A program made the position numbers and the translations under genes. Below are positions 688 to 46,056 of a stretch of DNA of 64,000 bases, piece by piece. The notes beneath the pieces are model-generated. The model was given only the letters and a program-made list of their open reading frames with translations, was not told where the DNA came from and did not search any database. How positions within the stretch are numbered: position 1 is the stretch's first letter; each line of letters starts with the position of its first letter. The DNA is from Armatimonadota bacterium (lineage in GTDB: Bacteria; Armatimonadota; Fimbriimonadia; Fimbriimonadales; GBS-DC), in assembly GCA_013359125.1 (NCBI GenBank), contig JABWCR010000001.1, positions 84,475 to 148,474 of the forward strand, read 5' to 3'.

Positions 688-2865
688 ATGCAAAGAAACC
701 AATCGGCGATCCTCGCCTTAAGCATCACCGTCGCGACGCTCATCGCGTCTGCGGCCAACTCGCAAGCCGTCCTCGCCTGGGCCGGAAGAGAAACCGGCCC
801 CGGCAACGACTTTGACATCGTAACCGACATGGCCGTCGACTCGCAAGGCCATGTCTACACGACCGGGTATTCCGCCGGACCTAACGGCCACGACATGTTC
901 ACCGTCAAATATCATTGGAACGGCGCCCGACTCTGGTCGCATCGCTACAATGGTTCGGCCAACACCAACGATTACGGCCGCGGCCTCGCTATCGACTCGC
1001 AAGACAACATCTACGTGGTCGGCAGCACGAACGAGGTTGGTCAAGGCTCTATCATGCGCATCGTCAAGTACAGCCCTCAAGGCTATGCGCTGTGGTCCAA
1101 TGCCTACAACTCGCCCGATGGCGGGGATGCGTTCTACGATGTTAAAATCGGCCCAGACGATAAGCCCATCGCGACCGGCACGGGCGGCACAGGCAGCTGC
1201 ATCACGATCAAGTACGACCAGAACGCCTCGACGGAGTGGCTGGATGGCTACAACAATACCGGCGTGCCCAGCGGCCTTGACATTGGCCTTGCTCTGACCA
1301 TCGATGCAGCCGGCAACTGCTACGTCGTCGGCAACACTTACAACGGAATGCGCGGCGACGACATGCTCTTCCTTAAGTACAATGCCGCAGGAACCAGACA
1401 GTGGGTGCGGCTGTACAACGGGCCGTACGGCGCCAACTCCAGCATCAACCTCGGTTTCTACATCGAAGACAGCGCGCTCGATTGTGCCGTGATGAACGTG
1501 AGCGGCACAAACTATCTCTACGTCGCCGGTTATGCGACGACCGCTGTTGCGAACAACGTTGCCACGGTCGGCCAGGTCATCCTCAAGATGGACGCGGGCA
1601 ACGGCTCGAACCTCGCGACCGTTGTGGGCAACCCGGCCAGCGGCCAGTTCGATTTCAAGCGACTGGCGGTCTGGTCTTCGGATCAGCGCGTCTACGCAGC
1701 AGGTTCCCGCGGATGCTATGCGTTCGACGCCAACTTGAACGTCGTCTGGTTCAATCCGACCGCCAGCGCAGATGTGGCGACCGACATCGATGGAGAGCCG
1801 GTTTTCCTAGACGGAGCCACTAGCGACGCTCGCGTTACTAAGATCAACAAGTTCAACGGTCAAGTTCGATGGTCGGCGGCCTATGACGGCGGCGGCAGCG
1901 AGAGCCCGGTGCGCGTCGCTTTGGACAGCCTCGGACGAGTCTACGTCGGGACAACCTCGCAAGGCGCCGGTCAAGACATGGTCGTCGCCCAGTTCGTCCA
2001 AGCGCCCTATGCCAAGATCAGCTTTAGCCACCCGATTCACGACCTCGCCGATGTCTACATCGGCCTGGGCAATCCCGACAATCCGATCTTTTTGAAAAAG
2101 GTCTGGGACGGCGAGAATCACGGCTCGGGCGAGCGCACGGTCTACCTGCCGTTGCGCGACAAGCACTGGTTCTACCAAACGCCGAGCGAGACCGTGGTCT
2201 ACTTTGGCAAAGTAACCGATGCCAACGGCGACGCAGAAGGCGCGCTAACCGGCTTTAGTATCGTCAGCGGCGGCGCGACGTATGCGAGCGGCAATGCGCC
2301 GACCGACGTGCCGGCCAACTCCAGCGCGATGGCCTACATCCCCACGCGCCAGAGCAAAACCGCGCTTGTCCGCATCGACCATCCAAATCGAGGCGACCTG
2401 AGAGTTGAAGTCGGCGCGGGCGACCCCGATTCGCCGTCTTATGTCAAGTTGGTAACCCAATACACCGGCAGCGGACTGCCGGGCATGTGGTGCCAAGTAG
2501 ACCTGACGGCGGCCTCCGCAATGCTCCCGCCTAGCTACCAGAATCGTTGGTGGGTGCGCGTGTTCGACGGCGGTCTGGGCAATCAGGGCCACATCACCGT
2601 GTTCAAGACCTTGACCAACAATCTGATGCACTCGGCCAAGTGCCTGCCCGCGGCGATCCTCGACAATCAGCGAACCCTGGTCAGCATCCCTGGCGCCCCG
2701 GGCGATCTGAACTGCGATGGCTGCGTGGACGACTCGGATCTGGCGATCGTGCTCGGACAGTTTGGCGCTTACGGCCAAAACCTGAACGGCGATGCGAACG
2801 GCGACGGTGCGGTCGACGATGTCGATCTGGCTATCGTTCTGCAACATTTCGGAGAAGGTTGCTGA
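688..2865 (+). CDS. secreted SBBP-type beta-propeller repeat protein with two P-domain-like modules and a dockerin-like C-terminal tail
   Basis: Lies inside ORF 394..2865. Start moved to ATG 688 (SD acggagg about 8 nt upstream), giving signal peptide MQRNQSAILALSITVATLIASAANSQA. Recurrent D..GN.YV.G......KY...G...W propeller repeats. IDHPNRGDLRVEVGAG resembles the proprotein-convertase P-domain hallmark. Tail: GDLNCDGCVDDSDLAIVLGQFG..GDANGDGAVDDVDLAIVLQHFGEGC. Confidence 0.85.
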   Translation: MQRNQSAILALSITVATLIASAANSQAVLAWAGRETGPGNDFDIVTDMAVDSQGHVYTTGYSAGPNGHDMFTVKYHWNGARLWSHRYNGSANTNDYGRGLAIDSQDNIYVVGSTNEVGQGSIMRIVKYSPQGYALWSNAYNSPDGGDAFYDVKIGPDDKPIATGTGGTGSCITIKYDQNASTEWLDGYNNTGVPSGLDIGLALTIDAAGNCYVVGNTYNGMRGDDMLFLKYNAAGTRQWVRLYNGPYGANSSINLGFYIEDSALDCAVMNVSGTNYLYVAGYATTAVANNVATVGQVILKMDAGNGSNLATVVGNPASGQFDFKRLAVWSSDQRVYAAGSRGCYAFDANLNVVWFNPTASADVATDIDGEPVFLDGATSDARVTKINKFNGQVRWSAAYDGGGSESPVRVALDSLGRVYVGTTSQGAGQDMVVAQFVQAPYAKISFSHPIHDLADVYIGLGNPDNPIFLKKVWDGENHGSGERTVYLPLRDKHWFYQTPSETVVYFGKVTDANGDAEGALTGFSIVSGGATYASGNAPTDVPANSSAMAYIPTRQSKTALVRIDHPNRGDLRVEVGAGDPDSPSYVKLVTQYTGSGLPGMWCQVDLTAASAMLPPSYQNRWWVRVFDGGLGNQGHITVFKTLTNNLMHSAKCLPAAILDNQRTLVSIPGAPGDLNCDGCVDDSDLAIVLGQFGAYGQNLNGDANGDGAVDDVDLAIVLQHFGEGC

Positions 2866-3443
2866 TGGCCGCCCAAACCGAAAGCCAGCGAATGATCGAC
2901 GCCCTGGAGAGCGACGACTGGCGCGAGAGGTTCGACGCGACCTACGCTCTCGGGATGATGAGCGAGGAGGACAACGTCCTCCCGCTCATCCGGGCGCTGG
3001 ACGATCCGCACGAGATGATTCGAGGCGCCGCGGCAGGGGCGCTCGGCGTGATGCGCGACCCCAGAGCCTTCGAGCCGCTCTCCAAAGCGCTCAAGGACCC
3101 GGACAAGCATGTGCGCATGGTGGCCGCCGCAGCATTGGGCGAGACCTACGATCGGTTGGCCGTCGGCCCGCTGATCGAGGCTCTGCAGGACGAAGAGCCG
3201 GGTGTGCGAACAGCGGCGATCTATGCCCTAGGCTGGCTGAGCGACGAGCGCGCCATGCCAGCGCTGCTAGCGTCGCTCACCGACGATTGCGAGCATGTGC
3301 GCTTCCTGGCCGCCAAAGCCGTGGCCAACATCTGGAGCCCGGCTGCCGTTGAGCCGCTGCTGCCCATGATCGAAAGCGACGACCCCGCCGTCCGCCAAGA
3401 AGCCTCGATGCTTCTCAGCCGCCGCTACAGGGGAGAGTCGTAG
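2865..3443 (+). CDS. HEAT-repeat (PBS-lyase HEAT-like) protein
   Basis: ATG 2865 overlaps the upstream stop (TGATG), implying translational coupling. Repeated D.D..VR..AA.ALG units: DDPHEMIRGAAAGALG, DPDKHVRMVAAAALG, DEEPGVRTAAIYALG, DDCEHVRFLAAKAV, DDPAVRQEA. Confidence 0.8.
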   Translation: MAAQTESQRMIDALESDDWRERFDATYALGMMSEEDNVLPLIRALDDPHEMIRGAAAGALGVMRDPRAFEPLSKALKDPDKHVRMVAAAALGETYDRLAVGPLIEALQDEEPGVRTAAIYALGWLSDERAMPALLASLTDDCEHVRFLAAKAVANIWSPAAVEPLLPMIESDDPAVRQEASMLLSRRYRGES

Positions 3444-3447
3444 ACGT

Positions 3448-3470
3448 GGAACGCCGCCCTTCCGCCTGGC
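3448..3470. repeat. degenerate copy of hairpin repeat module A (ggaacgcc..ccgcctggc)
   Basis: ggaacgccgcccttccgcctggc lies between convergent genes. It is related to the GGAACGCCAGGCNNNNGCCTGGC copies listed below. Confidence 0.4.
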
Positions 3471-3614
3471 CCAAATGGCTCCCTGTATAGGCCGAGGGGC
3501 TCCGGGCTGGGTCTTCGCTTTGGCTCTCCGATCCCTCCGCGCCTGCCGTTTGGTGCGGAGGGCCCAGAGGAAGGCGCCTATCAGCATTGGAGCGTCCGGG
3601 GCGACTTGACCATC

Positions 3615-4910: not shown

Positions 4911-5010
4911 GGCGGTCGCTTAGACAACCTTCCTAAGACGATCGGACGAAACGAACCGGGCGGCGCGATCCCTCTTGGGCATAAATGGGATTATAGCGCC
5001 GCTCGCACAA

Positions 5011-6538
5011 TCATGGACATACAGATCCGAACGCCCAAAGCATGGCCGCCAGGTCGGAATCGTCGATCCAGCCGTCCGCGTTGACGTCGCCCGCCGACCC
5101 CGGGTCTACCGATCGCCCGAATTGTTCAAGAACGATGGCCAAGTCCGCATCGTCAACATAGCCGCGTCCGCCCAGCCTTGGCAGTATCGAGCAATGATCC
5201 ATGGATACGCGAGCGTGAGCCAAATCCCACCAACGGGATCGATCCAAACGTCTCGCGCAACGGTTACGTTGGTGCGAGGCCCTTCGTAGATGTGCTTCTC
5301 TATCAGGCTGCCGTCCAATGTATAACGCATCAGGTAAATGCTATGTTGGTTGCTGTGCGGCCCCCCTCCCATCGTTGCCGTTATCTGGCCTCTAGCATCT
5401 ACCCTCGCCCGACCGAAACCGCCCAAGAAGCGATAATACGGTCTATAACTGATCTCGCGTTGAATCTCTCCGTCGGTCGTTACGGACAAAATGAGCGGCC
5501 GCCCTTCGTTCCAGTCCTTGATCCAAGAGACGCCGCCCGACGCTAAGATCGTCGTGCCGTGCACCTCCACATCGCTTGCCGAACCTTGGTTCAGGATTCC
5601 GTACGGAGCATAAAGAAAACTCCATCGGATCTGACCGTCAGGGCCGACCCGAGCCATGGGCAGGGCGGTGGATGGACCCCCAACATTGCTATTGCCTTGA
5701 GTGGCATGGCCGACAAAGACCAAGTCTCCTTCGTAGGTTGCAAGGCCGTATGCATTAAGACTCCCATCGAACTGATGGGGCGGTAGAGTTCGAAGTAGGG
5801 CCTCTCCGTCCCATCTGGAGCGTAGGCGCGACCTACCAGCGATGAGACATAGGGAGTCGCGTGGTCTAGCCTGCCGTTGCTCTTGCTGCCCAAGACGAAG
5901 ACAACGTCCGATTCCGCGGAATAGATAATCCTCGACGCCTTGTTGCTGTGCCGTCTCAACTCTGCAGGCAGTCTCCTCGCCCACTCGAGTCGTCCATCAG
6001 GGCTCAATTTGTACACCGGCCAATGACTAACAAAGTTCATGTCGTCCGAATAGCCGCAGACATAGACGCCCCCTCGATCATCGACGGCGATGCGCCGAGG
6101 ATCCTCAAAGAGCCACTGGCCGCTCGGCATCGACTCGAATTGGTGGGACCAAATCAGGTTGCCCTCTTTGTCGTGCTTAACGACGCAACTTGCCGAGATT
6201 CGCTCCGGATATTCCGTCCCGTAATCCACCATCCCGAGCGAAACGATCGAGCCGTCTTTGCCCTGCGCCATAGACCTCCCGTCAATTCTGCCGCGAGGAG
6301 GACTATAAGTCGAGCGCCAGATCAGCCGTCCGTCAGGAGCGTGCTTAGAAACGGAAAGGAATCTTCCCGAGGCATTGTTCCCATAGGACGAGTTGACGAG
6401 GTTCCCTGAAGAATCGGCCGTTGAATCAGCATAGTCGCTGGCAACGGACTGACCAGCGCGTTCGGTCCAGTGTAATCGAAACTGCCCGAAACTCGCCGCC
6501 GCGGCCATCAAGGCCGCGCACACAAACATTGAGCGCAT
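5011..6538 (-). pseudogene. frameshifted SBBP beta-propeller / dockerin-like-tail gene (paralog of 42714..44294)
   Basis: Three consecutive same-strand ORFs in three different frames (5591..6538, 5106..5984, 5011..5247). Together they reconstruct signal peptide, propeller and dockerin-like tail, and are colinear with the intact 551-aa paralog. Frame switches fall near 5780-5830 and near 5170-5250. Confidence 0.7.
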
Positions 6539-7251
6539 CCTTTCTGGGCCTCCAACTCTTTGGTTTCAGCAGTTATCGGTTGGCCGTCAAAGACGCGAAC
6601 TCGCAGAATCAGCTCCAATGCGCGCCCTTTTCCATCAGTGGCGGTTCCGGTCGCCCAAATGCCGCCGCTCTCGTCCAGCGCTAGCCGATCGAACAAACCG
6701 GAAAATCCTTCCGGCAAACGCATCATCCGCGCGCCGTGCAATGGACCGTATGCAAACTCGATTTCCCAGTCGTTTGACGGAACGCCTTCGCGGGCATCCA
6801 TCTTGACAATAACGGGCGCGGCGACCGGACCAATAGCCAACGAGCCAGCCGCATAGAGATTTCCGAATCGATCGAGCAGGATGGCCGAAGCCTGTTCCGC
6901 GCCGTCTCCCATATCCATTCGCCTTGTCCACTCAATCCGATAATCGTTCTCCGAATGCCGCTTGTACTTGCGGACCACAAAGTTCCCGTCCGTGCCCGCA
7001 ACGTAAAGATTGCCAAGCGGATCGGTGGCAAGGCTGTTTCCGCGACTGCCCTGGACATTCCAGGTGTCGCTCCAGACAACGTTGTCTTCCGAGTTTCGTT
7101 TGGCTATCCAGAGCGTCGGGTTTTTCCCATGGCTACCGGTTTCAAAGATGTTTCCATGTCGATCGACTAGGGTAGAGCGAATCTGAGGCGGCTGCGCCAA
7201 GGCGCACAATGCAAAAAGCAATGCGAGCGAAACGCCGACTTTGCGAAGCAT
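6508..7251 (-). CDS. secreted SBBP beta-propeller protein, short form (N-terminal ~45% equivalent of 44350..46056)
   Basis: Signal peptide MLRKVGVSLALLFALCALAQP. Blocks VVWSDTWN, NFVVRKYKRHSENDYRIEWT and GAEQASAILLDRFGNLYAAG align by eye with LLWSDQWN, DFAVRKYAKHATQESYTAAWT and GQEQARAIILDPDRRVFVAG of the 568-aa paralog. It lacks the dockerin-like tail. Confidence 0.7.
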   Translation of the reverse strand: MLRKVGVSLALLFALCALAQPPQIRSTLVDRHGNIFETGSHGKNPTLWIAKRNSEDNVVWSDTWNVQGSRGNSLATDPLGNLYVAGTDGNFVVRKYKRHSENDYRIEWTRRMDMGDGAEQASAILLDRFGNLYAAGSLAIGPVAAPVIVKMDAREGVPSNDWEIEFAYGPLHGARMMRLPEGFSGLFDRLALDESGGIWATGTATDGKGRALELILRVRVFDGQPITAETKELEAQKGCAQCLCARP

Positions 7252-13676: not shown

Positions 13677-15110
13677 CTACTTGGCGATGTGAGTAACCGA
13701 CTGACCGTCGCAGATGATGACGATCTCTTCGTCGTCGGCCACGGTCTCTAATCGCACAGGCCGGCCCCAAAGCTGCGCTATGCTGCGCAGGCAGCGGCTT
13801 GTTCGCGCCATGTCCAACGGCTTGCCGTCATAGTGGTGCCTTAGATAAAGCTCGCCCCTGTGCTCGTAGTCGCCGTCCTCCACCGTGATGATAGGCACGC
13901 CAAAATTGGTCAGTTGCTCGGCCAATGCGTTGCGGACCTTGCGCCAGTCGGTCTCGTCCACCACCCAGACCAATTCGCCCTCGCGCTCCTCTATGCGATA
14001 GGTGTAGAGATCGAGCTCCTTGACCAGATTGGAGGTCAGATACTTGTGCAGAAAGCTCTGGTCGTTTTCCGCCTCGCGCACCTCAAAAATCTTGGACATG
14101 CCCTCGCCGGTCGGACGGTCGATGCGCTCGCCCATCCAGTTCTCTTCCGGATCGTCGGCCTCTTCGCCGTTCCAACGCCGTTCGATGCTACGGAAAATCT
14201 TGTAACCGACGTAGTACGGGTTCATGCTGGTGCGCGATCCCGGCTGGAGCACGCTGGAATGCATCCGGCGAAACTGCAAGTGCTCCTCGGCGGTCAAGGG
14301 CAAGTTCTCCAGAATGCGCTCGTGCCAAAACGATGCCCAGCCTTCGTTCATGATCTTGGTCTTGATCTGGGGCACAAAGTAGAGCATCTCCTCCCGCACG
14401 ATCTCGACCACGTCGCGCTGCCAATCCTCCAACACTTTCGAATGGTCGCGGATAAAGAGCAACAGGTCTTTCTGGGGCGATGCGGGAAACCGGTCTTTGT
14501 CAACAGGCGTCTCAGGCTTTGGATCGACCATGTAGATCAGGTCGTCGTAGGAGGTTTCGCTTTTTCGAGCCTCTTTCTTCTTTTCTTGGGCCTTGGGCTG
14601 TTCGATAATCGGATCGATATGCTCGTCGATGGAGAGCAGCGCGTCCAACAGACTCTCTACCTCGGCTGGGCCGTGCTTCATCTCGTACTGTCGAATCCGC
14701 TCCGCGTGAAGCCGGCATCGTTCGATCATCTGGCGATTGGTGTGACGAAACGTCATGTTGTGCTTAAAAAAGTCCGAGTGGCCGTAAACGTGCGCGATGA
14801 CCAGCTTGTGAGACAGCATGTCGTTCACATCGAGCAAAAACGCTTGAGAAGGATCCGCGTTGAACACCAGTTCGTAGATTTTGCTAACCCCATACTCGTA
14901 CATCGTCTTTTGCACGTGGTAGTCGCGGCCGTACGTCCAATGCGAAAATCGCGCGGGCAGGGCGTAGGCGCCCAACTCGTAGATGACGTGCGCCGGCGCG
15001 ACCTCAAAATGGACAGGGAAGGGATCCAGGCCCAATTCGTGCGCCTTTTCCCAAATGATGTCGATCCATCGCTCCAATTCGGCATGTTCGGTCTGCGTCA
15101 GAGCGCTCAT
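13677..15110 (-). CDS. spoVR: SpoVR family protein
   Basis: Start moved to ATG 15110, which overlaps the yeaH stop (ATGA). Motifs FSHWTYGRDY, KIYELVFN and AHVYGHSDFFKHN. Confidence 0.92.
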   Translation of the reverse strand: MSALTQTEHAELERWIDIIWEKAHELGLDPFPVHFEVAPAHVIYELGAYALPARFSHWTYGRDYHVQKTMYEYGVSKIYELVFNADPSQAFLLDVNDMLSHKLVIAHVYGHSDFFKHNMTFRHTNRQMIERCRLHAERIRQYEMKHGPAEVESLLDALLSIDEHIDPIIEQPKAQEKKKEARKSETSYDDLIYMVDPKPETPVDKDRFPASPQKDLLLFIRDHSKVLEDWQRDVVEIVREEMLYFVPQIKTKIMNEGWASFWHERILENLPLTAEEHLQFRRMHSSVLQPGSRTSMNPYYVGYKIFRSIERRWNGEEADDPEENWMGERIDRPTGEGMSKIFEVREAENDQSFLHKYLTSNLVKELDLYTYRIEEREGELVWVVDETDWRKVRNALAEQLTNFGVPIITVEDGDYEHRGELYLRHHYDGKPLDMARTSRCLRSIAQLWGRPVRLETVADDEEIVIICDGQSVTHIAK

Positions 15111-16297
15111 AGGCTGGCCACTTCCTTGTGATTGCTGAAGAACAGCTTCAGCGCGGGCCAAACGTCCTCTTTGTTGGCGATCTTGACAATCACTACGCGG
15201 CCGTCCTCGCCAAAGGCGTCGTTTAGCGACTGTCCGAGCGGCGCCAGAGCCCCCGCCTGACCCCAAAGATCGTTCGCAATTTCGCCGTAGCCGACCAAGT
15301 TGCTATAATCGACCAACTTCTTCATGTACTCCACGACCTCGCTGTCGCCCCAGTTGTAACCGTCCGAGAACATGAACGGATAGATGTTCCATTCCCTCGG
15401 ATTAAACCGCTTCTCGATCACCTCGATGGCCAATCGATAAGCGACCGACAAGCGCGTGCCGCCCGAATCGCCCGCGGCGAAAAACTCGTGCTCGTCCACT
15501 TCCTTTGCTTCCGTGTGGCAAGTGATAAAGACGATGTCCGCGCTGGCATACTTCTTCTTAAGAAACCTCAGCATCCAATAGTAAAAGCTCCGGCAGATAT
15601 AGGCTTCGAATTCGCCCATGCTGCCGCTCACGTCGCGCATGGCCAGGATGACCGCGTTCTTTTGCTTTTCGGGCACGATCTCCCAAGATTTGAACCGCTT
15701 GTCCTCGTCCTCGATGTTCCAGCCCGGAGCGCCTTGCGCCGCATTGCGCTTGTAGGCGTTGATCAATGTGCGCTTTCGATCCAGATTAGACTGCGGCCCG
15801 CGCCGCGCCAAAGTGTCGAACCGAACCTGATCGGACAGGATGTCTTTGGTGCCTTTGTCCCGCAAATTGGGCAGGTGCAGGTCTTCGAACACCATCTCGG
15901 CGATCTCTTCGATCGTGAACTCGGCTTCGTAAAAATCGACGCCCGGCTCGGTGCCCGCTTGCTTGCCGGCCCCTTCGCCCGGTTGCCCCGATCGACCGAT
16001 CACGTCGCCCGGCTTGGTGTTGCCTTGCCCTTGCCCGACGCCTTTCTTGCCATGAGGATCGAAGCGTATGTGGGGCAATTCCAGCCCGCGAATGGGAATC
16101 TTGACGATTTTGCCGTCGTCCGCCGTGATGATATCCTGATGGCTGACCAGATCGCCTAAGTTTTCTTTGATCACCTCTTTGATCTTGTCGTTGTGGCGAA
16201 GGCGATCCTTCTCGGCGCGGCGATGCAAATCCCAAGAGTCGGCGGACAGCCAGGGATCGGAAACGCCCATTTTTGTCGTTTTTTCTTCTCTGCTCAT
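15107..16297 (-). CDS. yeaH: YeaH/YhbH family protein (DUF444, vWA-like)
   Basis: ATG 16297 with SD gagggtg. Block MRDVSGSM...HTEAKEVDEHEFF...GGT...NIY.F..SDG.NW matches E. coli YeaH blocks recalled from memory. Confidence 0.9.
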   Translation of the reverse strand: MSREEKTTKMGVSDPWLSADSWDLHRRAEKDRLRHNDKIKEVIKENLGDLVSHQDIITADDGKIVKIPIRGLELPHIRFDPHGKKGVGQGQGNTKPGDVIGRSGQPGEGAGKQAGTEPGVDFYEAEFTIEEIAEMVFEDLHLPNLRDKGTKDILSDQVRFDTLARRGPQSNLDRKRTLINAYKRNAAQGAPGWNIEDEDKRFKSWEIVPEKQKNAVILAMRDVSGSMGEFEAYICRSFYYWMLRFLKKKYASADIVFITCHTEAKEVDEHEFFAAGDSGGTRLSVAYRLAIEVIEKRFNPREWNIYPFMFSDGYNWGDSEVVEYMKKLVDYSNLVGYGEIANDLWGQAGALAPLGQSLNDAFGEDGRVVIVKIANKEDVWPALKLFFSNHKEVASL

Positions 16298-16383
16298 GTT
16301 AAGCACCCTCAATGTTGGATACGAACGAGGCCGCGTCGCCGTGCCCTTGCCAACTATTAGTATTGTCGGCGGCGGTCAAAGGT

Positions 16384-26161: not shown

Positions 26162-28354
26162 TTATTGCGGGCAGCAACCGAGGCCGAAGTTCATAAGGAC
26201 GGTGGCCAAGTCGACGTCGTCCACCCGGAAGTCGCGATTGGTGTCCTCGGTGAGACTTGGGCCAAAGTCTCCGAAGCGCATCAGCACGCGCGCCAGGTCG
26301 TAATCGTCGATGCAGCCGTCTTGGTCCACGTCGCCTTGCCAGTATCCTCTCGGATTGACCGCGCAAACCACTGCGCCGTCGCCTCGACCATAGACCATTT
26401 GGATTTCGTCCTTTGCGAACGACATGGCCGTTACGCCCTGGAATCCGCCCGTCTCCAAGTCGATGCGATTAGTGAGGGTTCGCAGGTTGAAATCCCAAAA
26501 GTTGAGAGAACCGAAGTAGGAAGAGCCGTCAAACTCGAACACGCCGGTGGCCAAGGTGCTGCCGTCATCGGAGAACTTGACGACGTTCACCCCGCCCGTA
26601 TGCGGCAGAGCCGCCTCCTGTTCGCCCGTCTGGATGTTCCAGACAGTGGCTTGGCAACCGATCGGGTATCGATCTGGGGACTCGTCGCCCTGGCCGATGA
26701 TCACTCGAAGACCGTCCGGCGAGAAATCGACCGAATTGGCCTGTGCTTCAGAGAGGAGAAAGCGCCGAGTAGGATCGAAGCTATCGAGCGTCCAGATTCG
26801 CGCGCCGCAATCGTAGAGGGTGCCTTCGGCGACGTAACCGCTGGCTGTGGCGATCATCGTACCGTTCCGAGAGAAGGCAACGGAGCGAATGGGCGATGTG
26901 TGGCCTTGATATTCGGTGTAAAGTTCGCCCGTATCGACGATCCAAAGACGCAACATGCAGTCGGTGAACCGATAGCCTTGAGTCGATTCGTACGAAGCGT
27001 CGCCGCCGGCGGATGCCAGCATGGTTCCGTCGGGCGAGAATGCCAAGCCCCGGACGGTCGCATAGTGGCCATAGAGAGTTTGAACGAGTTGTCCGTTCGA
27101 CGATCGCCAAATGTGGATATCGGCGATGCCATCGATGGGGTCGCCGCCGGTTGCGATCAGAGAGCCGTCGGGCGAGATCGCGATCGCTCGGATCCGCGAT
27201 TGAAATGGTCCGAGCACAGCTTGGGTCTGGCCGGTACAGACAGAGATGATCCTGAGCAAGTCGTCCCCGGCGGCGACGGCGGCGATGTCGCCGCTGGGCG
27301 ACACAGCGATCGCGCTGATGGGGTTGTGGTATTCGGCGTAGTCTCTAATCTGGACGCCTGTGTTTGCGTCCCATTCGAACACGGCGCGGTCGTCGCCCGA
27401 AGTGTAGAGCCGCAGACCATCGGGAGAGTAGAGCGCCTGGGTTGCACGCCCGCGATGAGCGATGACCGAAAACGCCGGAGCGTGGGGGATGGTCAGCCAG
27501 ACTCGAACGGTGCCGTCCGAACTGGTGGAGACCATGCGTCCGCCATCCGGCGCATAGGCAATACTGGTAATCTCGTCCGTATGGCCATGGAACGAACCGA
27601 TCTGCGTGCCGGTTAACGTGCTCCACTCACGAATGACGGGATCGGCCGAACTACCGCCGGAGCAAAGCCGAAGACCATCAAGCGAGTAAGCTAAAGATCG
27701 AACAGGACCTTCAAACGGTCCGATCTCTTGAACCATTGCGCCGGTCGTTGCGTTCCAAACGCGAATCGTGCCGTAGTTGTTGGGAAACGTTCCGTCTAGT
27801 CCGCCCGTAGCGATAGTCTGGCCGTTGGGACGAAATGCGAGCGCGGTCAGGTTTGCGCTGTGGACGAGAATCTGAGCAATGGGGGCTCCAGTCTCTACAT
27901 CCCACAACCTGACTCGTCGGTCGTCGTGGGCGGTGGCCAGCCGAGAGCCGTCGGGCGAGAATGCGACTGCCTTGACGCCGTTGACAGGCGCAGCGAGGGT
28001 GCGGACATAGTTCCCTACTCGCGGCTCCCATATGTGCGTCTGGCCCCATGCCTCGCCCGCCGCTAGCAGTGAGCCGTCGGGCGAGAATGCGAGCGTTCGA
28101 ACGCATCCAAGGTTGAATCGGGCCAGCGTGCGCTCGAGTCGACCGGTCAGGGTGGACCAGATTTTGATCGTTCGGTCGCAGAAACCGGCCGTGGCCAGCC
28201 ACAGACCGTCCGGCGACTGTGCTATCGCCTCGACTCCGTTGGCATGGCCGCCCGCCATCCACTTGATAGTGGGCGGGTTCTGCGCCAGAGAAGCCCCAAA
28301 TATCAAAACGGCAAAAAGCGCCGTCAGCAAAGCTCTCTTTCCTGCCATCGACAC
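26162..28354 (-). CDS. secreted WD40-repeat protein (at least 13 repeats) with dockerin-like C-terminal tail
   Basis: Signal peptide MSMAGKRALLTALFAVLIFGASLAQ. At least 13 units of (F/Y)SPDG..(L/I)A(T/S)...D..(I/V)..W. Tail: GDVDQDGCIDDYDLARVLMRFG...NRDFRVDDVDLATVLMNFGLGCCPQ. Confidence 0.88.
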   Translation of the reverse strand: MSMAGKRALLTALFAVLIFGASLAQNPPTIKWMAGGHANGVEAIAQSPDGLWLATAGFCDRTIKIWSTLTGRLERTLARFNLGCVRTLAFSPDGSLLAAGEAWGQTHIWEPRVGNYVRTLAAPVNGVKAVAFSPDGSRLATAHDDRRVRLWDVETGAPIAQILVHSANLTALAFRPNGQTIATGGLDGTFPNNYGTIRVWNATTGAMVQEIGPFEGPVRSLAYSLDGLRLCSGGSSADPVIREWSTLTGTQIGSFHGHTDEITSIAYAPDGGRMVSTSSDGTVRVWLTIPHAPAFSVIAHRGRATQALYSPDGLRLYTSGDDRAVFEWDANTGVQIRDYAEYHNPISAIAVSPSGDIAAVAAGDDLLRIISVCTGQTQAVLGPFQSRIRAIAISPDGSLIATGGDPIDGIADIHIWRSSNGQLVQTLYGHYATVRGLAFSPDGTMLASAGGDASYESTQGYRFTDCMLRLWIVDTGELYTEYQGHTSPIRSVAFSRNGTMIATASGYVAEGTLYDCGARIWTLDSFDPTRRFLLSEAQANSVDFSPDGLRVIIGQGDESPDRYPIGCQATVWNIQTGEQEAALPHTGGVNVVKFSDDGSTLATGVFEFDGSSYFGSLNFWDFNLRTLTNRIDLETGGFQGVTAMSFAKDEIQMVYGRGDGAVVCAVNPRGYWQGDVDQDGCIDDYDLARVLMRFGDFGPSLTEDTNRDFRVDDVDLATVLMNFGLGCCPQ

Positions 28355-37560: not shown

Positions 37561-38616
37561 TTGGTCGCTCCCTTTATAGACGAAGTTAAAAGACTGCCCA
37601 AGCCGCAAATATGGATGGTCGGCGCCATCGCGCTCGCCATCGGCATGCTCATCTACTCGTACTACGTCATCATCGATCTCTACTACATCCCACGATGGGG
37701 GCATGAGGACGGTTACTACTCTCACGCCTATCTGGTGCCAATCTTGGCTGTCGCCATTCTGTGGATGCGTAGAGACCGGCTGAAAGAACTCGGCGCCGAT
37801 ATGACGATTTACAGCCTTTTTGCGGGCATCGTTGCGTTTGTGATCGCCTTTGCGCTGATCCACGCAAGGGAATACCAGTCTCTCGGCTCGCCCAACTACA
37901 AGCCGGAATTCTACGAGACCTATGGCGTGCCTTTGTTGCTGGCGGTCTGTACGGCGATGCTGACGCTGCTCTACGTGGAGAAGCCCAAACCGAACTACTG
38001 GGGTCTGGGCATACTGGCGCTGGCTGTGGCGGCCCGAGCGGTCGGGCATTGGGGCAACTCCTTCTGGACGCCCAGCATGGCTTTGCCTCTCTTCATCATT
38101 GGAGCCATGATGCTGCTTTATGGGTGGCAGATCACCAAGGTGCTGATGTTTCCGATCCTGTTCCTCTACTTCATGGTTCCGTTGCCGTCTTGGATTTTTG
38201 ACGAGGTAACGCATCCGATCCAAGTCTGGTCGACAGACGCCTCGGTTACCATTCTCAAGTTCTTCTATTCGGTAACTCGCACGGGCGAGATCAAATTTCT
38301 AATGCCCAGCATGTACGAACTGGGCGTCGGGGTGGAGTGCAGCGGCTTTAAGATGACTATCTCGCTGCTCACCTTCATCTTCTTCTTTATGGTCTTTGTC
38401 GATCTGCCCGCATGGAAGAAGGCGATCATGGTAGCAGTCGTTTTGCCCATCGCGGTGCTGACCAATGCGCTTCGTATTTGTAGCGTGGCGGTCGCCGGGC
38501 ATCACTTTGGCGCCGATGTCGGCAATACCGTGCACGACTGGAGCGGCTATCCGTTGCTGTTCGTCGCGTTCATGTTCATTTTTGCTTTGGCAAGGTGGTT
38601 AGGATGGAAAAGATAG
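37561..38616 (+). CDS. exosortase family protein
   Basis: TTG start with SD ggagga 6 nt upstream. Polytopic membrane protein. Catalytic-type Cys in GVECSGFKM, Arg in TNALRI, His in AGHHFG. Confidence 0.85.
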   Translation: MVAPFIDEVKRLPKPQIWMVGAIALAIGMLIYSYYVIIDLYYIPRWGHEDGYYSHAYLVPILAVAILWMRRDRLKELGADMTIYSLFAGIVAFVIAFALIHAREYQSLGSPNYKPEFYETYGVPLLLAVCTAMLTLLYVEKPKPNYWGLGILALAVAARAVGHWGNSFWTPSMALPLFIIGAMMLLYGWQITKVLMFPILFLYFMVPLPSWIFDEVTHPIQVWSTDASVTILKFFYSVTRTGEIKFLMPSMYELGVGVECSGFKMTISLLTFIFFFMVFVDLPAWKKAIMVAVVLPIAVLTNALRICSVAVAGHHFGADVGNTVHDWSGYPLLFVAFMFIFALARWLGWKR

Positions 38617-39407
38617 AACGACCGGACGAGATCGAGGCCGAAGCCCCTGTAAACGGCGCTTTGGGCGAAGCAAAGGCCGAATGGGAGCAGGAGGGCGGCG
38701 CTCCTGAGGCTGAACCTATCGCAGAGCCAGTAACCTTGACAGGATCGACCGCGATGCAGAATCGCATGAAGCTGCCTATGGCGGTTCTCTTGGTTTTTGC
38801 CATCGGTATGGCGGTGGCAGTCAACGTGATCAAGCAGCCCGAGGGCGCCAAGGGCGAGCCGACCTTGCACAAACTCTCGCTCAACTTGGGCGACTGGGGC
38901 GGTCAGAAGTACGAGATGGACAAGGCTTCTTTGGACGAGTTGAAGCCGGACGAGTACGCGGCGATTCAGTATCGCGACAACGACGGCAACTCGGGCGATC
39001 TGACCATCATCGCCGGGTCGCACACGGGCGCCTTTCACAATCCCGAGGTCTGCTTTAGGGCGCAGCAGTGGGAGTTTACGGAGAACGCCGCCTCGTCTCT
39101 GGCCGTGCCGGGCATGGATCGCGAGATACCGATCAAGCGGGTCGGTCTCAATCACAGGATTACTGGACAGAAGGCGGTCGGCCTTTACTTCTACAAGACG
39201 CCTTATGGTCTTTTTGCCGATACGACGCCGGCCAGAATCTGGCTTTTCTTTGCGAGGGTATTAGGGGTTCAGCAAAAGTCCTACTTTGTCCGAGTGTTGG
39301 TGCTCTCCTCAGGCGGAAACAAGGAGAAGGACTTTGAAACGCTGGAGCAGTTTGCGATCGAGGTATTGGAATCAACCCGAGAAACCAATCCAGAACTGCT
39401 GAACTAA
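38595..39407 (+). CDS. EpsI family (exosortase-associated) protein
   Basis: Single TM (LPMAVLLVFAIGMAVAV) followed by a periplasmic domain with ...LGDW.G......L..L..D.Y....Y......V.L.I........HNPE.C.... The start is uncertain: GTG 38595, ATG 38604 or ATG 38754. Confidence 0.75.
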   Translation: MVRMEKIERPDEIEAEAPVNGALGEAKAEWEQEGGAPEAEPIAEPVTLTGSTAMQNRMKLPMAVLLVFAIGMAVAVNVIKQPEGAKGEPTLHKLSLNLGDWGGQKYEMDKASLDELKPDEYAAIQYRDNDGNSGDLTIIAGSHTGAFHNPEVCFRAQQWEFTENAASSLAVPGMDREIPIKRVGLNHRITGQKAVGLYFYKTPYGLFADTTPARIWLFFARVLGVQQKSYFVRVLVLSSGGNKEKDFETLEQFAIEVLESTRETNPELLN

Positions 39408-40566: not shown

Positions 40567-41124
40567 TTATCTCGCGTATTCGAATCTGGGCTGCCACTCG
40601 CCTGCGCCATCCTTCAGCAGGTCGAACATGTGCCAGACGGAACAGTAAAAGTCTCCCGGGCCAAAGTAGTCTCTCGCGATGCGCCTTATCTGGCCTTCCT
40701 CCAGCCTGAAGGTCGAGAAGCCCGGCCAGTAATCGCCGTTTACTTCGAAGCCCATGTCCTTAGTGAAGCTTGATCCGGCGGCAGAGACCATCTTGAATCG
40801 CCATCCTCGGCTAAGGGCAAACTCCTTCTGTGCGTGCGGTTCGTCGGGCGAGACGACGACAAATCCGGCGCGGTTTTGAAAGTGGTCGGTGAGACCGTTT
40901 AACCCATCGGCCCAGAGCGTGCAGTAGGGGCAGTTGCGGCCCATATTGTGGACCACGATCAGGTCTTGCTTGTCTCCAAAGAGTTGGGAGAGTTTGACGC
41001 TGTTGCCGTCTTGGTCTTTCAAGTCGTAATCGAACGCCTCTTCAGGCCCTTGGCTTTTGAGGAGATCGACCATTTGCTTGCGGAGTTCGCGGATCTGCTC
41101 TTCGATTCTTTGGTACTCTTCCAT
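40567..41124 (-). CDS. DUF899 thioredoxin-like family protein
   Basis: LIVVHNMG..CPYCTLWADG and F.......GF..VS.......F....GW.F...S. Confidence 0.75.
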   Translation of the reverse strand: MEEYQRIEEQIRELRKQMVDLLKSQGPEEAFDYDLKDQDGNSVKLSQLFGDKQDLIVVHNMGRNCPYCTLWADGLNGLTDHFQNRAGFVVVSPDEPHAQKEFALSRGWRFKMVSAAGSSFTKDMGFEVNGDYWPGFSTFRLEEGQIRRIARDYFGPGDFYCSVWHMFDLLKDGAGEWQPRFEYAR

Positions 41125-41624: not shown

Positions 41625-42656
41625 ATGAAGCAGATTTTGATTCTCGCAGCGGCCGCTATGGTGGTTGCTGCCGGCGCGCAGCCGTCCAACGACGGCGTAG
41701 CCATCACGTCCAAGTATCCCGGCGCCCTGATTGCGGCGCAGTCCAACTACACCGGTTTTGGCGATAACTTTTCCGAACTCAACACGCTCTGGGGCTTCCG
41801 CACTCTCAGCACGCTCTACCTGGGCGTTGCGGGCAATTTGGAGGGCAACTTCAACAATCTCCATATCTATATCGACTCGATCCCCGGCGGCGGAAACCCG
41901 TTCTTTCTGAACCAGGGCTGTCTGAACTGTAGCGTGGTGGGCATGAGCGGCGTGGTGTGGGACAGCGGCTTTACGCCCGACTACGTGCTCTCGATCAGCC
42001 ACGGCGGCGGCGTCTACTATGTGGACCTGATCGACATTACGACCGATACCTCTTGCTATCAGGGCGAAGGGTATACCGATAGTTTCAGCGGTCTGTTGTT
42101 CGGCGGCTCCGACTGCGCGACCAGCGGTCTGTTGGTGGCCTTTAACAACACCAACAGTATGGGTATTACCAGCGATTCGAACAATTTGGGCGATCCGTTC
42201 ACGTGCAGCACAGGTTTCGACATCCAGATCCCCATCAGCGCGATTGCGGCGACCGGTCCGATCAAGGCGGCCGCGCTCATTACGGGCGGCGCCAATTTGG
42301 GCGATCTGTGCGGCAGCAACAGTCTGCCCCTTGGCACCTATGTGTCGAACCAGATGCTGCCAGCCATGAACTCGGGCAATCCGGGCTCGCATTACAACAA
42401 TCTGGCGTGGTCGCACTGTCCCGACGCTTTGGGCGGCGCGAACGGCATCGAGTTCACTCAGGCTACGGGCGATCAGTGCGCCGACGTGGTTTGGCTGGGC
42501 GATGTGAACGGCGACTGGTGCGTGGACGATGCGGATCTGGCGATTGTTTTGGAGAACTTTGGCACGGACGATGAACAAGCAGACGTGAACGGCGACGGGA
42601 TTGTGGACGATACCGATCTGGCGATCGTTCTCTCTTCGTTCGGCGTCGGTTGCTAA
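41625..42656 (+). CDS. secreted protein with unknown Cys/Gly/Asn-rich domain and dockerin-like C-terminal tail
   Basis: Start moved to ATG 41625 (SD aaaggaggga). Signal peptide MKQILILAAAAMVVAAGAQP. Tail: GDVNGDWCVDDADLAIVLENFG...DVNGDGIVDDTDLAIVLSSFGVGC. Confidence 0.85.
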   Translation: MKQILILAAAAMVVAAGAQPSNDGVAITSKYPGALIAAQSNYTGFGDNFSELNTLWGFRTLSTLYLGVAGNLEGNFNNLHIYIDSIPGGGNPFFLNQGCLNCSVVGMSGVVWDSGFTPDYVLSISHGGGVYYVDLIDITTDTSCYQGEGYTDSFSGLLFGGSDCATSGLLVAFNNTNSMGITSDSNNLGDPFTCSTGFDIQIPISAIAATGPIKAAALITGGANLGDLCGSNSLPLGTYVSNQMLPAMNSGNPGSHYNNLAWSHCPDALGGANGIEFTQATGDQCADVVWLGDVNGDWCVDDADLAIVLENFGTDDEQADVNGDGIVDDTDLAIVLSSFGVGC

Positions 42657-42671
42657 TCGCGACTCGTAAAC

Positions 42672-42701: not shown

Positions 42702-42713
42702 CTAAGTTCACTA

Positions 42714-44294
42714 TTAATCTCCGCAGGTTTCGCCGTACATCCACAGCACGAGGGCGAGATCGGCATCGTCCACAAAGCCGTCCTTGACCGCGTCGCCGTT
42801 GCTGCCCGGCGGCACGATCGCTCCGAAGTTCTCTAAGACGGTCTCTAAGTCCGTTCCGTCTACCCTGCCGTCGTTGTTCGCGTCGCCCCATCGCTGGCAG
42901 AGTTTGATGGTGATGGCGTCTGCGCCTGAAGTCCAATCCCAGACGGTCGTGCCGACGATGTAGACCCCGCCCCAGTCGTCTAAGAACAGATCTTCCAACG
43001 TGTCGACGTTGTCGGCCGGAGCATGCCAGCGATACTGCCATGTCAGCTGGTCCCCGGCGTTGAACTTGGCGACATAAACATCCTGGTTAAGCGACGAGCT
43101 GCGCTGGCTCCCGCCGTAGCCCACGTAGAGCGAGCCAAAGGCATCGACGCGCCCTCTTTGCGCGTTGCCCTCAAAATCGGGCATCGGGCGGTAGAAGAGA
43201 GGCTCGAGGGGCGCGCCGTCCAGCCGATAGCGCAACACATAGCAATCGTATAGATCGATGTCTGTCCAATGATCGGCGCCGCTAAAAGAGTAGACGATGC
43301 CGTTTGCGATCGTCAGCCCGATCGCCGAACCAAAGAATTGGGACTGGGGATAGAGTTCGTAGACGCGAACCCAGGCTAGTTCGCCATTTGGACGAATGCG
43401 CCCGGTCGCGGCCGCGAAGGAGACCTGGCCCCGGTCGTTGGCCCATGTGATGGTGCCGCCGGTGAAGATGAGGTCGCCGTCGATTGCGACGATTCCTAGC
43501 GCGTGATAATGTCGGCTGTACTCCGTCTGGGACGCCAATCGATTGAAGCCGACCAATGCGCCGTCTTCCGCGCGATAGGCCGCTACCCACATGTCGGACC
43601 AATAGCGCGTCCAATCGTTGGGGCGCGGCGCGTCGACGGCCACTGTACCCGTGGCATAGATCAGGTCGTTCTGCGGACTATAGGCGACGCGGCTGGCTCT
43701 GCTTCTCGTCCGATCGTGCGGCGGAGGCGGGCGGCGCATCCATTGCAGTTGGCCGTCTGAGTTCAACTTGTAGACCACGTAGTGGATGGCGGCGTCCCAC
43801 GCCTCGGACATTCCGGCAACATAGGCGTTGCCGCTGTCATCGACCGCCAAGTCGTACGACTCGTCCAAATTGAAGCCGGGCGTCTCGAAACGATGCCTCC
43901 AGAGAAGGCGGCCGTCCCGATCCATCTTCACCGTGTCGATCGCTTGTCGCTCTGGCTGAGGATGAGCGGCGCCCGTAACAAAGACATTGCCCGACGAGTC
44001 GACGGCGAGGGCGCTTGGGCCGCCCAACGCTTCCCCCGAATTGCGAGCGATCGATCGAAGCCAGACCCGCCGACCGTCTGGCGCGTATTTGATAATGGTC
44101 CACCGCAGGCGATTCTCAGAGTCCGGGTCGCCGCCCATGACGATCAGATGGCCCGACGGGTCCCATTTCGATTCTTTGACCGTATTATTCCGCACGCCCT
44201 GGTACACGTCCATCCACTGGACCCAGGGTTGGGCGACAGCCAAGGTTGCGGTACAGATAAAGGCGCTCAGAACGAATTTCGCTCTCATGTTCAT
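42714..44294 (-). CDS. secreted SBBP beta-propeller protein with dockerin-like tail (cassette gene b)
   Basis: Start moved to MNMRAKFVLSAFICTATLAVAQP. Propeller repeats. Tail: CQRWGDANNDGRVDGTDLETVLENFG...GDAVKDGFVDDADLALVLWMYGETCGD. Confidence 0.85.
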   Translation of the reverse strand: MNMRAKFVLSAFICTATLAVAQPWVQWMDVYQGVRNNTVKESKWDPSGHLIVMGGDPDSENRLRWTIIKYAPDGRRVWLRSIARNSGEALGGPSALAVDSSGNVFVTGAAHPQPERQAIDTVKMDRDGRLLWRHRFETPGFNLDESYDLAVDDSGNAYVAGMSEAWDAAIHYVVYKLNSDGQLQWMRRPPPPHDRTRSRASRVAYSPQNDLIYATGTVAVDAPRPNDWTRYWSDMWVAAYRAEDGALVGFNRLASQTEYSRHYHALGIVAIDGDLIFTGGTITWANDRGQVSFAAATGRIRPNGELAWVRVYELYPQSQFFGSAIGLTIANGIVYSFSGADHWTDIDLYDCYVLRYRLDGAPLEPLFYRPMPDFEGNAQRGRVDAFGSLYVGYGGSQRSSSLNQDVYVAKFNAGDQLTWQYRWHAPADNVDTLEDLFLDDWGGVYIVGTTVWDWTSGADAITIKLCQRWGDANNDGRVDGTDLETVLENFGAIVPPGSNGDAVKDGFVDDADLALVLWMYGETCGD

Positions 44295-44349
44295 TGTAAT
44301 AACTCCCGCACTTGCGGGTCGGGCTTTTAAGCCCGACCCGTGTCTGCCA

Positions 44350-46056
44350 TTAAGGACATTGGTGCCCAAACGCTGCCAAAACGATCGCTAAGTCGGTATC
44401 GTCGACCGTTCCATCGTTGTTCAAGTCGGTCTCGGGGCATCCGCCTTGCTGGCCGAAGCAGCCCAAGACATAGGCCAGATCCGCGTCGTCCACAATGCCG
44501 TCGTGGTTGATGTCGGCCCGTGGCCAGCACCAACGCATCGCCAGAAAGTGGTTTTGCGAGCCAATCTGCAATCTTCCCGCCGTCCAGACGTAGGAAGGGT
44601 CGGAAGAGTCGTAGACCATGGCAAATGGCCTTTCAGCATCGCCAGGCGCGTCTCGTTCGAAGTTCCTTTCGAATCGGACGTCGAGGCAGGGACTGAACTT
44701 AGCCAGTTTGAAGTCCGAGTCAGAGCCGCTCGGCCTTTTGGCGGGCGCGACCACAAAGACATTGCCGTGCACGTCCAAGATCGCTCGCGCGACCGTCTCA
44801 TTGACCACGTTTATCGAAAGCAGGTCCACATCTGCGTTGTCGGCAATGGGCGAGACGGTGCGGTCGTCGCACGCCGAATAGGTCGCGGTATACTTTGCCG
44901 CCACCATTCGCTGGGTCTCTCCGGTGGAGCCGACCATGCCGATGCCGGCGGCATAAACGACCGAATGTTGGGCGTCAAGCAGGATAGCCGTCGGATAGGC
45001 CGCGGTGGTCTCACTTGGGTGGAAAATCGACTTCCAGCACCGATTGCCCTCGGGGTCGTACTTGATCACCCCAAAGTCGCCGGGAAGCGATTGTGTTTCG
45101 CTCGCGGCGCCGGCCACATAGGCGTTGCCCGCTTGATCCATGACGATGGCGTTCGCCACGTCGTCGGACGAGGTCACATGGCTCCAAACAGCCTGGTAGG
45201 CTACGGCACCGTCGAGTTTGTCTATTCTAACGGTCAAGAAGTCCTTGTGATTCGGGGAACCGCCGCCTGATTGAAGGACATAGCCTGCGGCGCCGACGTG
45301 ATCGGCGCCATCCAGGGCGATCGCGTGGAGCTGGTCTTCGCCATTGGCGCTGCCGGAGAAGAAGCGAATGCCTTCGAGATGGTTTCCACCAGGCTCCCAC
45401 TGGTCAGAGGGCTCTCCGTCAGAGTTATTCAATCTGGCAACAGCGGCGTCGAGATTCCCGTCCTTGACGAGCTTTCCAGCAACGAACACTCGCCTGTCTG
45501 GGTCTAGAATGATGGCTCTCGCCTGTTCCTGTCCGTTGCCGTTGTGAATCAGGGTTGTCCACGCCGCGGTGTAGCTTTCTTGCGTGGCGTGCTTGGCATA
45601 CTTTCTGACGGCAAAGTCCCAATCGCCGGAACCCGTCTGCACCGTTCCGCAGACGTAGACGTTCTGGGAACTGTCGACCGCGACTCCAAAGCCCTCGTCG
45701 TCGCCGTCGAACGAGCCGTTCCACTGGTCGGACCAGAGCAAGACGCCGCTTCGGTCGTACTTGACGACATGGATGTCCAGCCCGTTTGGGCCGGAAACGA
45801 CTCCCGCAAGATAGGCGTTTCCGAGCGGGTCTTTTGCCATTGACCGCACGAAAGCTGTGGATGCGCCCGACGTATTCCGCTTGTCGATCTTCTCCAGACT
45901 GAAATTCAAAGGCAGGCAGTTCTCTTGGCCCGGCGCGGTGGGCGGTTGGGAAAGGAAGGCGATCAATAACAGCAAGGTCAAGGTCAGTCTCCCGTTACGG
46001 TAGAGAGAGAGAGGGGGAGAGAGAGCCGAATCGATGGCGCTGCATAGTCTGAACAT
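44350..46056 (-). CDS. secreted SBBP beta-propeller protein with dockerin-like tail (cassette gene a)
   Basis: Hydrophobic leader LTLTLLLLIAFLS. Propeller repeats (NAYLAGV, NVYVCGT, RVFVAGK, NAYVAGA, VVYAAGI, NVFVVAP). Tail: WCWPRADINHDGIVDDADLAYVLGCFG...DLNNDGTVDDTDLAIVLAAFGHQCP. Confidence 0.85.
   Translation of the reverse strand: MFRLCSAIDSALSPPLSLYRNGRLTLTLLLLIAFLSQPPTAPGQENCLPLNFSLEKIDKRNTSGASTAFVRSMAKDPLGNAYLAGVVSGPNGLDIHVVKYDRSGVLLWSDQWNGSFDGDDEGFGVAVDSSQNVYVCGTVQTGSGDWDFAVRKYAKHATQESYTAAWTTLIHNGNGQEQARAIILDPDRRVFVAGKLVKDGNLDAAVARLNNSDGEPSDQWEPGGNHLEGIRFFSGSANGEDQLHAIALDGADHVGAAGYVLQSGGGSPNHKDFLTVRIDKLDGAVAYQAVWSHVTSSDDVANAIVMDQAGNAYVAGAASETQSLPGDFGVIKYDPEGNRCWKSIFHPSETTAAYPTAILLDAQHSVVYAAGIGMVGSTGETQRMVAAKYTATYSACDDRTVSPIADNADVDLLSINVVNETVARAILDVHGNVFVVAPAKRPSGSDSDFKLAKFSPCLDVRFERNFERDAPGDAERPFAMVYDSSDPSYVWTAGRLQIGSQNHFLAMRWCWPRADINHDGIVDDADLAYVLGCFGQQGGCPETDLNNDGTVDDTDLAIVLAAFGHQCP

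Follow-up and report, generated by a model that had tools for sequence, protein, structure and literature searches.

Why should the proteins encoded at several separate places in one bacterial genome, some of them of quite different architecture, all finish with the same short module of two calcium-type loops bracketed by cysteines? The question is raised by a stretch of 64,000 nucleotides (the window) from an Armatimonadota bacterium of the class Fimbriimonadia (GenBank assembly GCA_013359125.1, contig JABWCR010000001.1, positions 84,475 to 148,474), in which six dockerin-like tails (t1 to t6) terminate the exported proteins p1 to p5 and the product of a pseudogene. On balance, we favour the reading that the module is a disulfide-clasped docking tag of dockerin fold, by which exported proteins would be held on a shared receptor of the cell envelope.

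Six C-terminal modules and their carriers

A profile built from all six tails was run on every stop-to-stop open reading frame (ORF) in the six-frame translation of the window. It recovered exactly the six C-terminal tails that a first-pass annotation of this DNA had pointed out, with scores of 85-102 bits, the next-best ORF of the window reaching 9.9 bits. The tails are 55-60 residues long, all six are the C-termini of their proteins, and the profile gap of more than 75 bits, together with a DNA identity of only 52-71% among them, rules out chance or a DNA repeat as their origin. Judged by their sequences, they are old, diverged paralogous modules and not a DNA repeat element. Each consists of two F-hand repeats, in agreement with the two motif copies described earlier, with the consensus D-x-N-x-D-G-x-V-D-D-x-D-L-A-x-V-L-x-x-F-G, and within a tail 11-16 of 21 residues are common to both repeats. 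Positions 1, 3, 5, 9 and 12, which would provide the Ca ligands (D/N/D/D/D), are intact in nine of the ten complete loops (the exception is loop 2 of t4, with Val at position 3), and the tails can be expected to bind Ca2+.

In all six tails a terminal Cys stands exactly three residues past the last (F/Y)G, and the position of a second, N-side Cys defines two subtypes. In subtype 1 the N-side Cys occupies loop position 7 (DG-C-V/I-DD). This subtype comprises t1 (2701..2865 (+), GDLNCDGCVDD...FGEGC, 94.5 bits, with Cys at loop positions 4 and 7 besides the terminal one), t2 (26162-26335 (-), GDVDQDGCIDD...FGLGCCPQ, 93.8 bits) and t3 (42498-42656 (+), GDVNGDWCVDD...FGVGC), so that t1 and t3 end in GC and t2 in GCCPQ. 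In subtype 2 the N-side Cys lies four residues before the G/A preceding the first Asp (LCQRWGD, WCWPRAD and YCQGWAD) and the end is Cys plus one or two residues (TCGD in t4, QCP in t5, VCP in t6). To it belong t4 (42714-42899 (-), LCQRWGD...YGETCGD, 92.8 bits), t5 (44350-44532 (-), WCWPRAD...FGHQCP, 102.5 bits, with four Cys) and the tail of the pseudogene, t6 (5010-5190 (-), YCQGW...FGSVCP). The bracket and its two subtypes, as first described, hold in 6/6 tails; the accompanying count of one Cys on either side is inexact, t1, t2 and t5 having extra ones.

The proteins that carry the tails are less varied than the first-pass annotation, which spoke of six unrelated ones, had it. An SBBP propeller is common to p1, p4, p5 and the pseudogene, with a mutual identity of 23-34%, and by sequence the window holds three kinds of cargo, namely SBBP, WD40 and one domain without family assignment. 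The exported SBBP beta-propeller protein p1 (688..2865 (+), 725 amino acids (aa), SBBP 45 bits) matches NUL81172.1 exactly; the P-domains once ascribed to it were rejected, as Pfam returned no such match in p1 even at E<=10. The exported WD40 propeller protein is p2 (26162..28348 (-), 728 aa, NUL81199.1, WD40 257.7 bits). In the exported protein p3 (41625..42656 (+), 343 aa, Dockerin_1 28.2 bits) the N-terminal domain, residues 24-287, has no Pfam family even at E<=10. Two further exported SBBP propeller proteins, each matched by Pfam and by an NCBI protein, are p4 (42714..44294 (-), 526 aa, deposited as NUL81215.1 with 524 aa) and p5 (44350..46056 (-), 568 aa, deposited as NUL81216.1 with 543 aa). 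The four NCBI proteins, which are exact matches, belong to an 'Armatimonadetes bacterium' metagenome-assembled genome (MAG) with HUU60_ locus tags. The N-termini of the tailed proteins are signal-peptide-like, as judged by eye.

The sixth tail lies, as had been proposed, in a pseudogene, a frameshifted SBBP paralogue of p4 (5010..6538 (-)). A tblastn search with p4 reads it in three frames (6532-5885, 5774-5163 and 5163-5017), and one of the breaks falls inside loop 1 of the tail. An identical pattern of broken ORFs is found at this site in an independent assembly, which is why we regard the pseudogene as genuine and an assembly artefact as unlikely. Directly upstream of it, a 247-aa SBBP-repeat ORF without a dockerin tail (6508-7251 (-)) is 32% identical to the N-terminal region of p5; this is probably a further gene remnant, and the spot would thus hold decayed propeller genes.

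Modules of the DG-C-VDD...FGxGC type are abundant in Fimbriimonadia and almost always C-terminal. Against a set of 5.8 billion proteins the tail profile found 158 short proteins, nearly all of the named ones from Fimbriimonadales/Armatimonadetes, among them one named 'GC-type dockerin domain-anchored protein'. The same profile, run on 1.84 billion cluster representatives, found 30,828 proteins at E<=0.001, a set that amounts to the whole dockerin-like superfamily, numerous Cys-bracketed variants such as C-P-G-D...W-G-P-C included. The subtype-1 alignment, when a single genome per species was scanned with it, yielded at least 258 confirmed stretches, and the locus analyses were made on the best 79 loci (737 kb), all from 25 Armatimonadota assemblies. 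These loci contain 103 modules, in 100 of which the stop follows within 8 residues. At least 13 copies occur in one MAG and at least 10 in those portions of a complete genome that were sampled, numbers which, as a lower bound, support the proteome-wide system that had been surmised from six copies. With the tails removed, the cargos fall by BLAST into at least 32 clusters and match 100 Pfam families, including WD40, PD40, GSDH and CarboxypepD_reg. Tandem arrays of tailed genes are seen in related Fimbriimonadales, with six genes in 11 kb at one locus (L005, AP024673.1 922584-934008) and three or four at others (L060, L026 and L062). In the same genome as the window a seventh tailed gene (581 aa, 1122-2867 (-) of locus L080, on JAPKFX010000001.1) lies about 7 kb beyond the window start, and its tail (LGDVNGDNVIDD...FGTSGD, at the stop) has neither the N-side nor the terminal Cys.

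Co-varying cysteines in a dockerin fold

The two Cys positions go together far beyond the window, and the terminal Cys, on whose conservation the first-pass annotation had staked its proposal, accompanies the loop Cys throughout. Among short homologues it is present in 73/73 tails with a Cys at loop position 7. The tails of the 79 loci comprise 69 with loop and terminal Cys (69/69 of the loop-Cys tails), none with the loop Cys alone, six with the terminal Cys only and 19 with neither (p=5e-15). The distinct C-terminal modules of two protein searches divide into 106 with both Cys, 4 with the N-side one only, 15 with the C-side one only and 17 with neither (Fisher p=5e-10), and the 50%-identity representatives, in the same classes, into 35, 2, 7 and 8 (p=3e-4); all these counts include related sequences, and the p-values overstate independence. 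The both-Cys and the neither-Cys states are each spread over many separate cargo clusters. At the level of sequence, the co-variation is one-sided and repeated despite the kinship that inflates the p-values, with a co-occurrence far above independence in homologues and loci alike. For subtype 2, orthologues of p4 at 79%, 39% and 33% identity keep both KLCQRWGD and a terminal TC(P/GD/GV).

Three observations on further cysteines may be recorded here. Loop 1 of t1 (2713-2724 (+)) reads D-L-N-C-D-G-C, a CxxC motif in a tail with three Cys, and NCDGC is also found in two homologues from other assemblies (P0255 and P0257). In t5 a second Cys pair (44419-44454 (-)) has one member where helix 1 ends (LGCFG) and the other, seven residues away, in the linker between the repeats (GGCPE), which suggests a second disulfide. 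In some metagenomic relatives each half-module is bracketed separately, C..PGD...WGPC occurring twice (P0103 and P0115).

The module was called dockerin-like from its motifs, and both sequence models and structure prediction bear this out. With the Pfam family Dockerin_1 (PF00404, gathering cutoff 22.9 bits, whole-protein score) one of the six tails scores above the cutoff (p3, 28.2 bits), four stay below it (p1 21.0, t6 18.9, p5 17.4 and p4 16.9 bits) and the family is absent among the best 25 Pfam families listed for p2; in a wider sample of 92 relatives, no more than 28 match the family at E<=1e-3. The NCBIfam model NF041540 (dockerin_GC, 67 positions, curated cutoff 29 bits) scores below its cutoff throughout (p1 17.9, p3 22.0, p5 20.4 and t6 14.0 bits) and finds no match at E<=1 in the tails of p2 and p4; its alignments of window tails reach the last position of the profile. 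The canonical EF-hand pair PF13499 (cutoff 30 bits) has its sole match, of 13.8 bits, in p5. The closest solved relatives by sequence are the dockerins 2y3n_B, 8ajy_B and 2jnk.

AlphaFold2 (AF2) models of t3 and t5, made on homologue alignments, reached a predicted local distance difference test (pLDDT) score of 90.3 and 89.2, respectively. In a Foldseek search of the PDB with the t3 model, ranks 1-25 were taken up exclusively by dockerins and by chains bearing one, nearly all of them solved in complex with a cohesin. The best match was 2y3n_B (template modelling (TM) score 0.74, root-mean-square deviation (rmsd) 1.2 A), and the probability was 1.00 for the top five. Calmodulin-type EF-hands rank below dockerins both in the fold search (rmsd >10 A) and in the sequence search. 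As modelled, the module is of dockerin fold, and by sequence it sits at the thresholds of the curated models or under them.

Contacts between the two ends of the module were sought as DSSP beta-bridge partners in the AF2 models. In the t3 model a beta-bridge is formed by two residues only, Cys19 at loop position 7 and Gly62, and since Gly62 adjoins the terminal Cys63, the C-terminal GC of subtype 1 lies, in the model, directly against the loop Cys. The proximity of the two cysteines, which had been predicted for the tails at large, is thus borne out for subtype 1, in a confident model. In the t5 model the equivalent contact is Ile21-Gln66, with a symmetric twin, Thr50-Gln37, and the Cys pairing proposed for subtype 2 draws on the conservation of both Cys in orthologues. 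A contact of this kind is known from dockerins as an intramolecular clasp, in which residues -1 to -3 touch the C-terminus, stabilise the fold and aid cohesin binding (Slutzki et al. 2013, PMC3821032). Mutants of this clasp have a melting temperature lowered from 61 to 41-55 C and bind cohesin about tenfold more weakly (PMC3821032).

Proposed docking, its partner and the alternatives

We propose the following course of events. A dockerin-fold module, with two Ca2+-binding F-hands in pseudo-twofold packing, would form the C-terminus of Sec-exported proteins in Fimbriimonadia-type Armatimonadota. After export, a disulfide would be made between the C-terminal Cys and the N-side Cys, at loop position 7 in subtype 1 and four residues before the loop in subtype 2. 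The bond would lock both chain ends together and stabilise a face of the cohesin-binding type, as the clostridial clasp does, and the locked module would then act as a common docking tag, holding propellers, dehydrogenases and other proteins on one shared receptor in the cell envelope, which may or may not be cohesin-like. That the module is a tag is suggested by its strictly C-terminal placement on exported cargos of many unrelated kinds, and that it has a single shared binding partner by its fold and by two helix faces that are both highly conserved among paralogues; docking itself is what we infer from these features.

Several points weigh against this reading, first of all on the side of the cysteines. 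An intramolecular disulfide is probable in the tails, and the case for its formation is built on co-variation and, for subtype 1, on the modelled contact. The co-variation was counted among kin, and the coupling is not absolute, six locus tails having the terminal Cys only and three a Cys at position 6 only. Eight such odd tails were inspected (five terminal-only, two position-6-only and one with neither), and most of them have a further Cys in the domain before the tail, at a distance of 20-40 residues upstream, an arrangement that suggests other pairings. Surplus cysteines are present in t1 (CDGC in loop 1), t2 (the GCCPQ end) and t5 (four Cys), and in the t5 model the N-side Cys falls within an N-terminal block of low confidence (mean pLDDT 55). 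The partner is the other side of the matter: no Pfam cohesin is present in 46 ORFs of the window, as the first-pass annotation had already remarked of this stretch, the 737 kb of loci around the 103 modules have no recurrent cohesin-like neighbour, and a profile of three verified Clostridium thermocellum cohesins (a narrow type-I profile of low power) found nothing in 15,166 six-frame ORFs.

If the terminal Cys made an intermolecular bond instead, to a receptor, to another tail or in some other covalent attachment, the N-side Cys having a different role, then tails with the terminal Cys only (6 in the loci, 15 in the protein searches) and tails with an odd number of Cys (three in t1, the CC end of t2) would be readily understood. 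This we consider highly improbable, given that a loop Cys is in no case seen without the terminal one (69 vs 0 and 73 vs 0), that loop and terminal Cys are in contact in the t3 model, and that in the terminal-only tails inspected a further Cys lies a short way upstream.

An ordinary cohesin-dockerin system, in which plain dockerins bind scaffoldin or anchoring cohesins encoded elsewhere in the 660-kb contig or the genome and the Cys pair is a local stabilising decoration, is a serious possibility, if a clearly lesser one than a clasped tag. The fold and the nearest solved relatives are those of dockerins from cohesin complexes, the highly similar repeats resemble those of dual-binding type-I dockerins, and cohesin-dockerin pairs outside cellulosomes are documented, as in the 'planctosome' proposed for Planctomycetes (PMC6461901). 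It has against it that no cohesin was found in the window, among the Pfam hits of a 22-kb locus extending about 9 kb past the window start, or in the 737 kb of flanks, these searches having taken in the window plus about 740 kb of related flanks, which is a minor portion of each genome, and having used a narrow profile in the loci. Recurrent neighbours in the related loci are DUF1559 pseudopilins, the ATPase of the type II secretion system (T2SS), PD40 proteins, kinases and dehydrogenases; none of them is cohesin-like, and a conserved neighbour was dismissed as the partner.

The C-terminal position invites comparison with secretion signals. Among SBBP homologues in other phyla, 13/52 have the C-terminal sorting domain of the type IX secretion system (T9SS), PF18962, at the C-terminus, one of them under the name 'T9SS type A sorting domain-containing protein'. 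Other SBBP homologues (P0281-P0292 and P0306, from Zixibacteria, the FCB group and others) carry a different dockerin-like double, GDANND...INYLFKGGPAP twice, and these doubles also finish with Cys (..PAPSC, ..PAPCI, ..CCL). Since T9SS domains or Cys-ending dockerin-like doubles are found there, the C-terminal slot of SBBP proteins is one used for sorting or anchoring modules. The tails themselves might accordingly be a secretion or sorting signal, recognised by an outer-membrane machine and perhaps removed as in T9SS, and the strictly C-terminal position (100/103), the many unrelated cargos, the T9SS domain in the same slot of homologous SBBP proteins and the recurrence of type II secretion ATPase and pseudopilin genes near dockerin genes would all agree with it. 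We nevertheless hold this to be improbable. We know of no dockerin-fold domain that acts as a translocation signal, and the pseudopilin and T2SS families are so abundant in these genomes that their adjacency may be due to chance; moreover, none of the tailed proteins is a PEP-CTERM-type substrate for the exosortase encoded in the window, and their tails are without a transmembrane helix.

Immediately behind this exosortase gene (37561-38613 (+), EpsH 153 bits) comes a DUF3485 (EpsI-like) gene, and the two, spanning 37561-39404 (+), lie upstream of the cluster of three dockerin genes at a distance of 2 kb. A PEP-CTERM-like end is seen in no ORF of the window, and the exosortase substrates must therefore lie elsewhere. 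The tails stop 0-3 residues past the Cys with no hydrophobic segment, unlike a PEP-CTERM-type transmembrane sorting signal, in which a signature motif precedes a transmembrane helix and a basic tail, and on both grounds a link of the exosortase to the tails was discarded. A redoxin gene (40567-41124) beside the 41.6-46 kb cluster was considered as a dedicated oxidase and rejected, for its product has no signal peptide and is of the DUF899/AhpC-like cytoplasmic type.

A bolder form of the docking idea is that the tail is the address tag of an undescribed, cohesin-independent and Fimbriimonadia-specific surface-attachment or sorting system, in which a disulfide-locked, Ca2+-loaded dockerin fold is read by a receptor or machine other than a cohesin. 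We think this unlikely, if somewhat less so than a translocation signal. Were it true, such a tag would play the part in Armatimonadota that the T9SS C-terminal domain plays in Bacteroidota, and the Cys clasp might tie docking to the redox state of the envelope.

Two further gene pairs of the window deserve mention. At 51864-53701 (+) a restriction-modification pair consists of an N6/N4 DNA methylase (143 bits) followed by a MjaI-family restriction endonuclease (225 bits). At 13680-16312 (-) a SpoVR-like gene (454 bits) and a DUF444 gene (314 bits) are adjacent, in a phylum that does not sporulate; the SpoVR/DUF444 pair usually accompanies PrkA in a conserved stress operon.

Comparison with known dockerins and sorting domains

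Dockerin-like modules outside cellulosomes are already known, having reportedly been described by Peer et al. in 2009, and the GC-type dockerin is catalogued by NCBI. In the literature searched, we came across no study of the 'GC-type dockerin', nor any that substantively links Armatimonadetes with dockerins. What is new, as far as sequences tell, is a large Fimbriimonadia family of tails mostly missed by both curated models, Pfam overlooking about two thirds of them, and a tightly coupled Cys pair in at least two topologies within one genome, which lends itself to interpretation as the known clasp made covalent. Otherwise the module is of a kind one would expect, met in a new host, and no new principle is involved. 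Armatimonadota are nearly uncultured, and a tag common to dozens of exported proteins in each genome offers a route to listing their surface and secreted proteome and to fishing for the receptor.

Like the type I dockerin of PF00404, the tails are composed of a duplicated F-hand of about 22 residues with the Ca loop D-x-N-x-D-G-x-V-D-x-x-D plus a helix, stand at the C-terminus of exported proteins, and have the same fold and near-symmetric repeats. They differ from it by the conserved Cys pair and by ending at or no more than three residues past the terminal Cys, whereas the three solved dockerins aligned have no Cys at the loop position; they differ also in their Armatimonadota host, in having propellers as cargo in place of carbohydrate-active enzymes, and in that a cohesin was not found in the parts searched. 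With NF041540 ('GC-type dockerin domain-anchored protein') they share the character of a C-terminal dockerin variant, here a curated one, and one Fimbriimonadales homologue ending in FGNGC (P0040) reaches the cutoff of this model and is so named by the Prokaryotic Genome Annotation Pipeline (PGAP) of NCBI. With a cutoff of 29 bits, however, the window tails reach 14-22 bits, and typical Fimbriimonadales FGxGC tails about 21 bits. Of the Gly-Cys end, a family trait as judged from the name and the members seen, t1 and t3 are examples, while t2 ends in GCCPQ and t4-t6 in TCGD, QCP and VCP.

The T9SS C-terminal domain PF18962 resembles the tails in occupying the same slot on homologous SBBP propellers and in being a multi-copy tag on diverse exported cargo. 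It has, in contrast, an unrelated beta-sandwich fold and a known translocon, and its link to the tails is a positional analogy only.

The nearest counterpart of the Cys pair is the clasp described by Slutzki et al. (2013, PMC3821032), a study in which cysteine is not mentioned. In both cases N-side residues near the first Ca loop contact the C-terminus, and a Trp at -1 to -3 is kept in five of the six window tails; in the window tails, however, a disulfide is predicted, and subtype 1 employs loop position 7 and not residues -1 to -3. A coupled Cys pair of this kind would be a natural covalent N-to-C clasp, which could guide the design of sturdier dockerins for designer cellulosomes and surface display. 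The modelled contact fits the view that the Cys pair is a covalent version of the non-covalent clasp that joins the N- and C-terminal ends of known dockerins.

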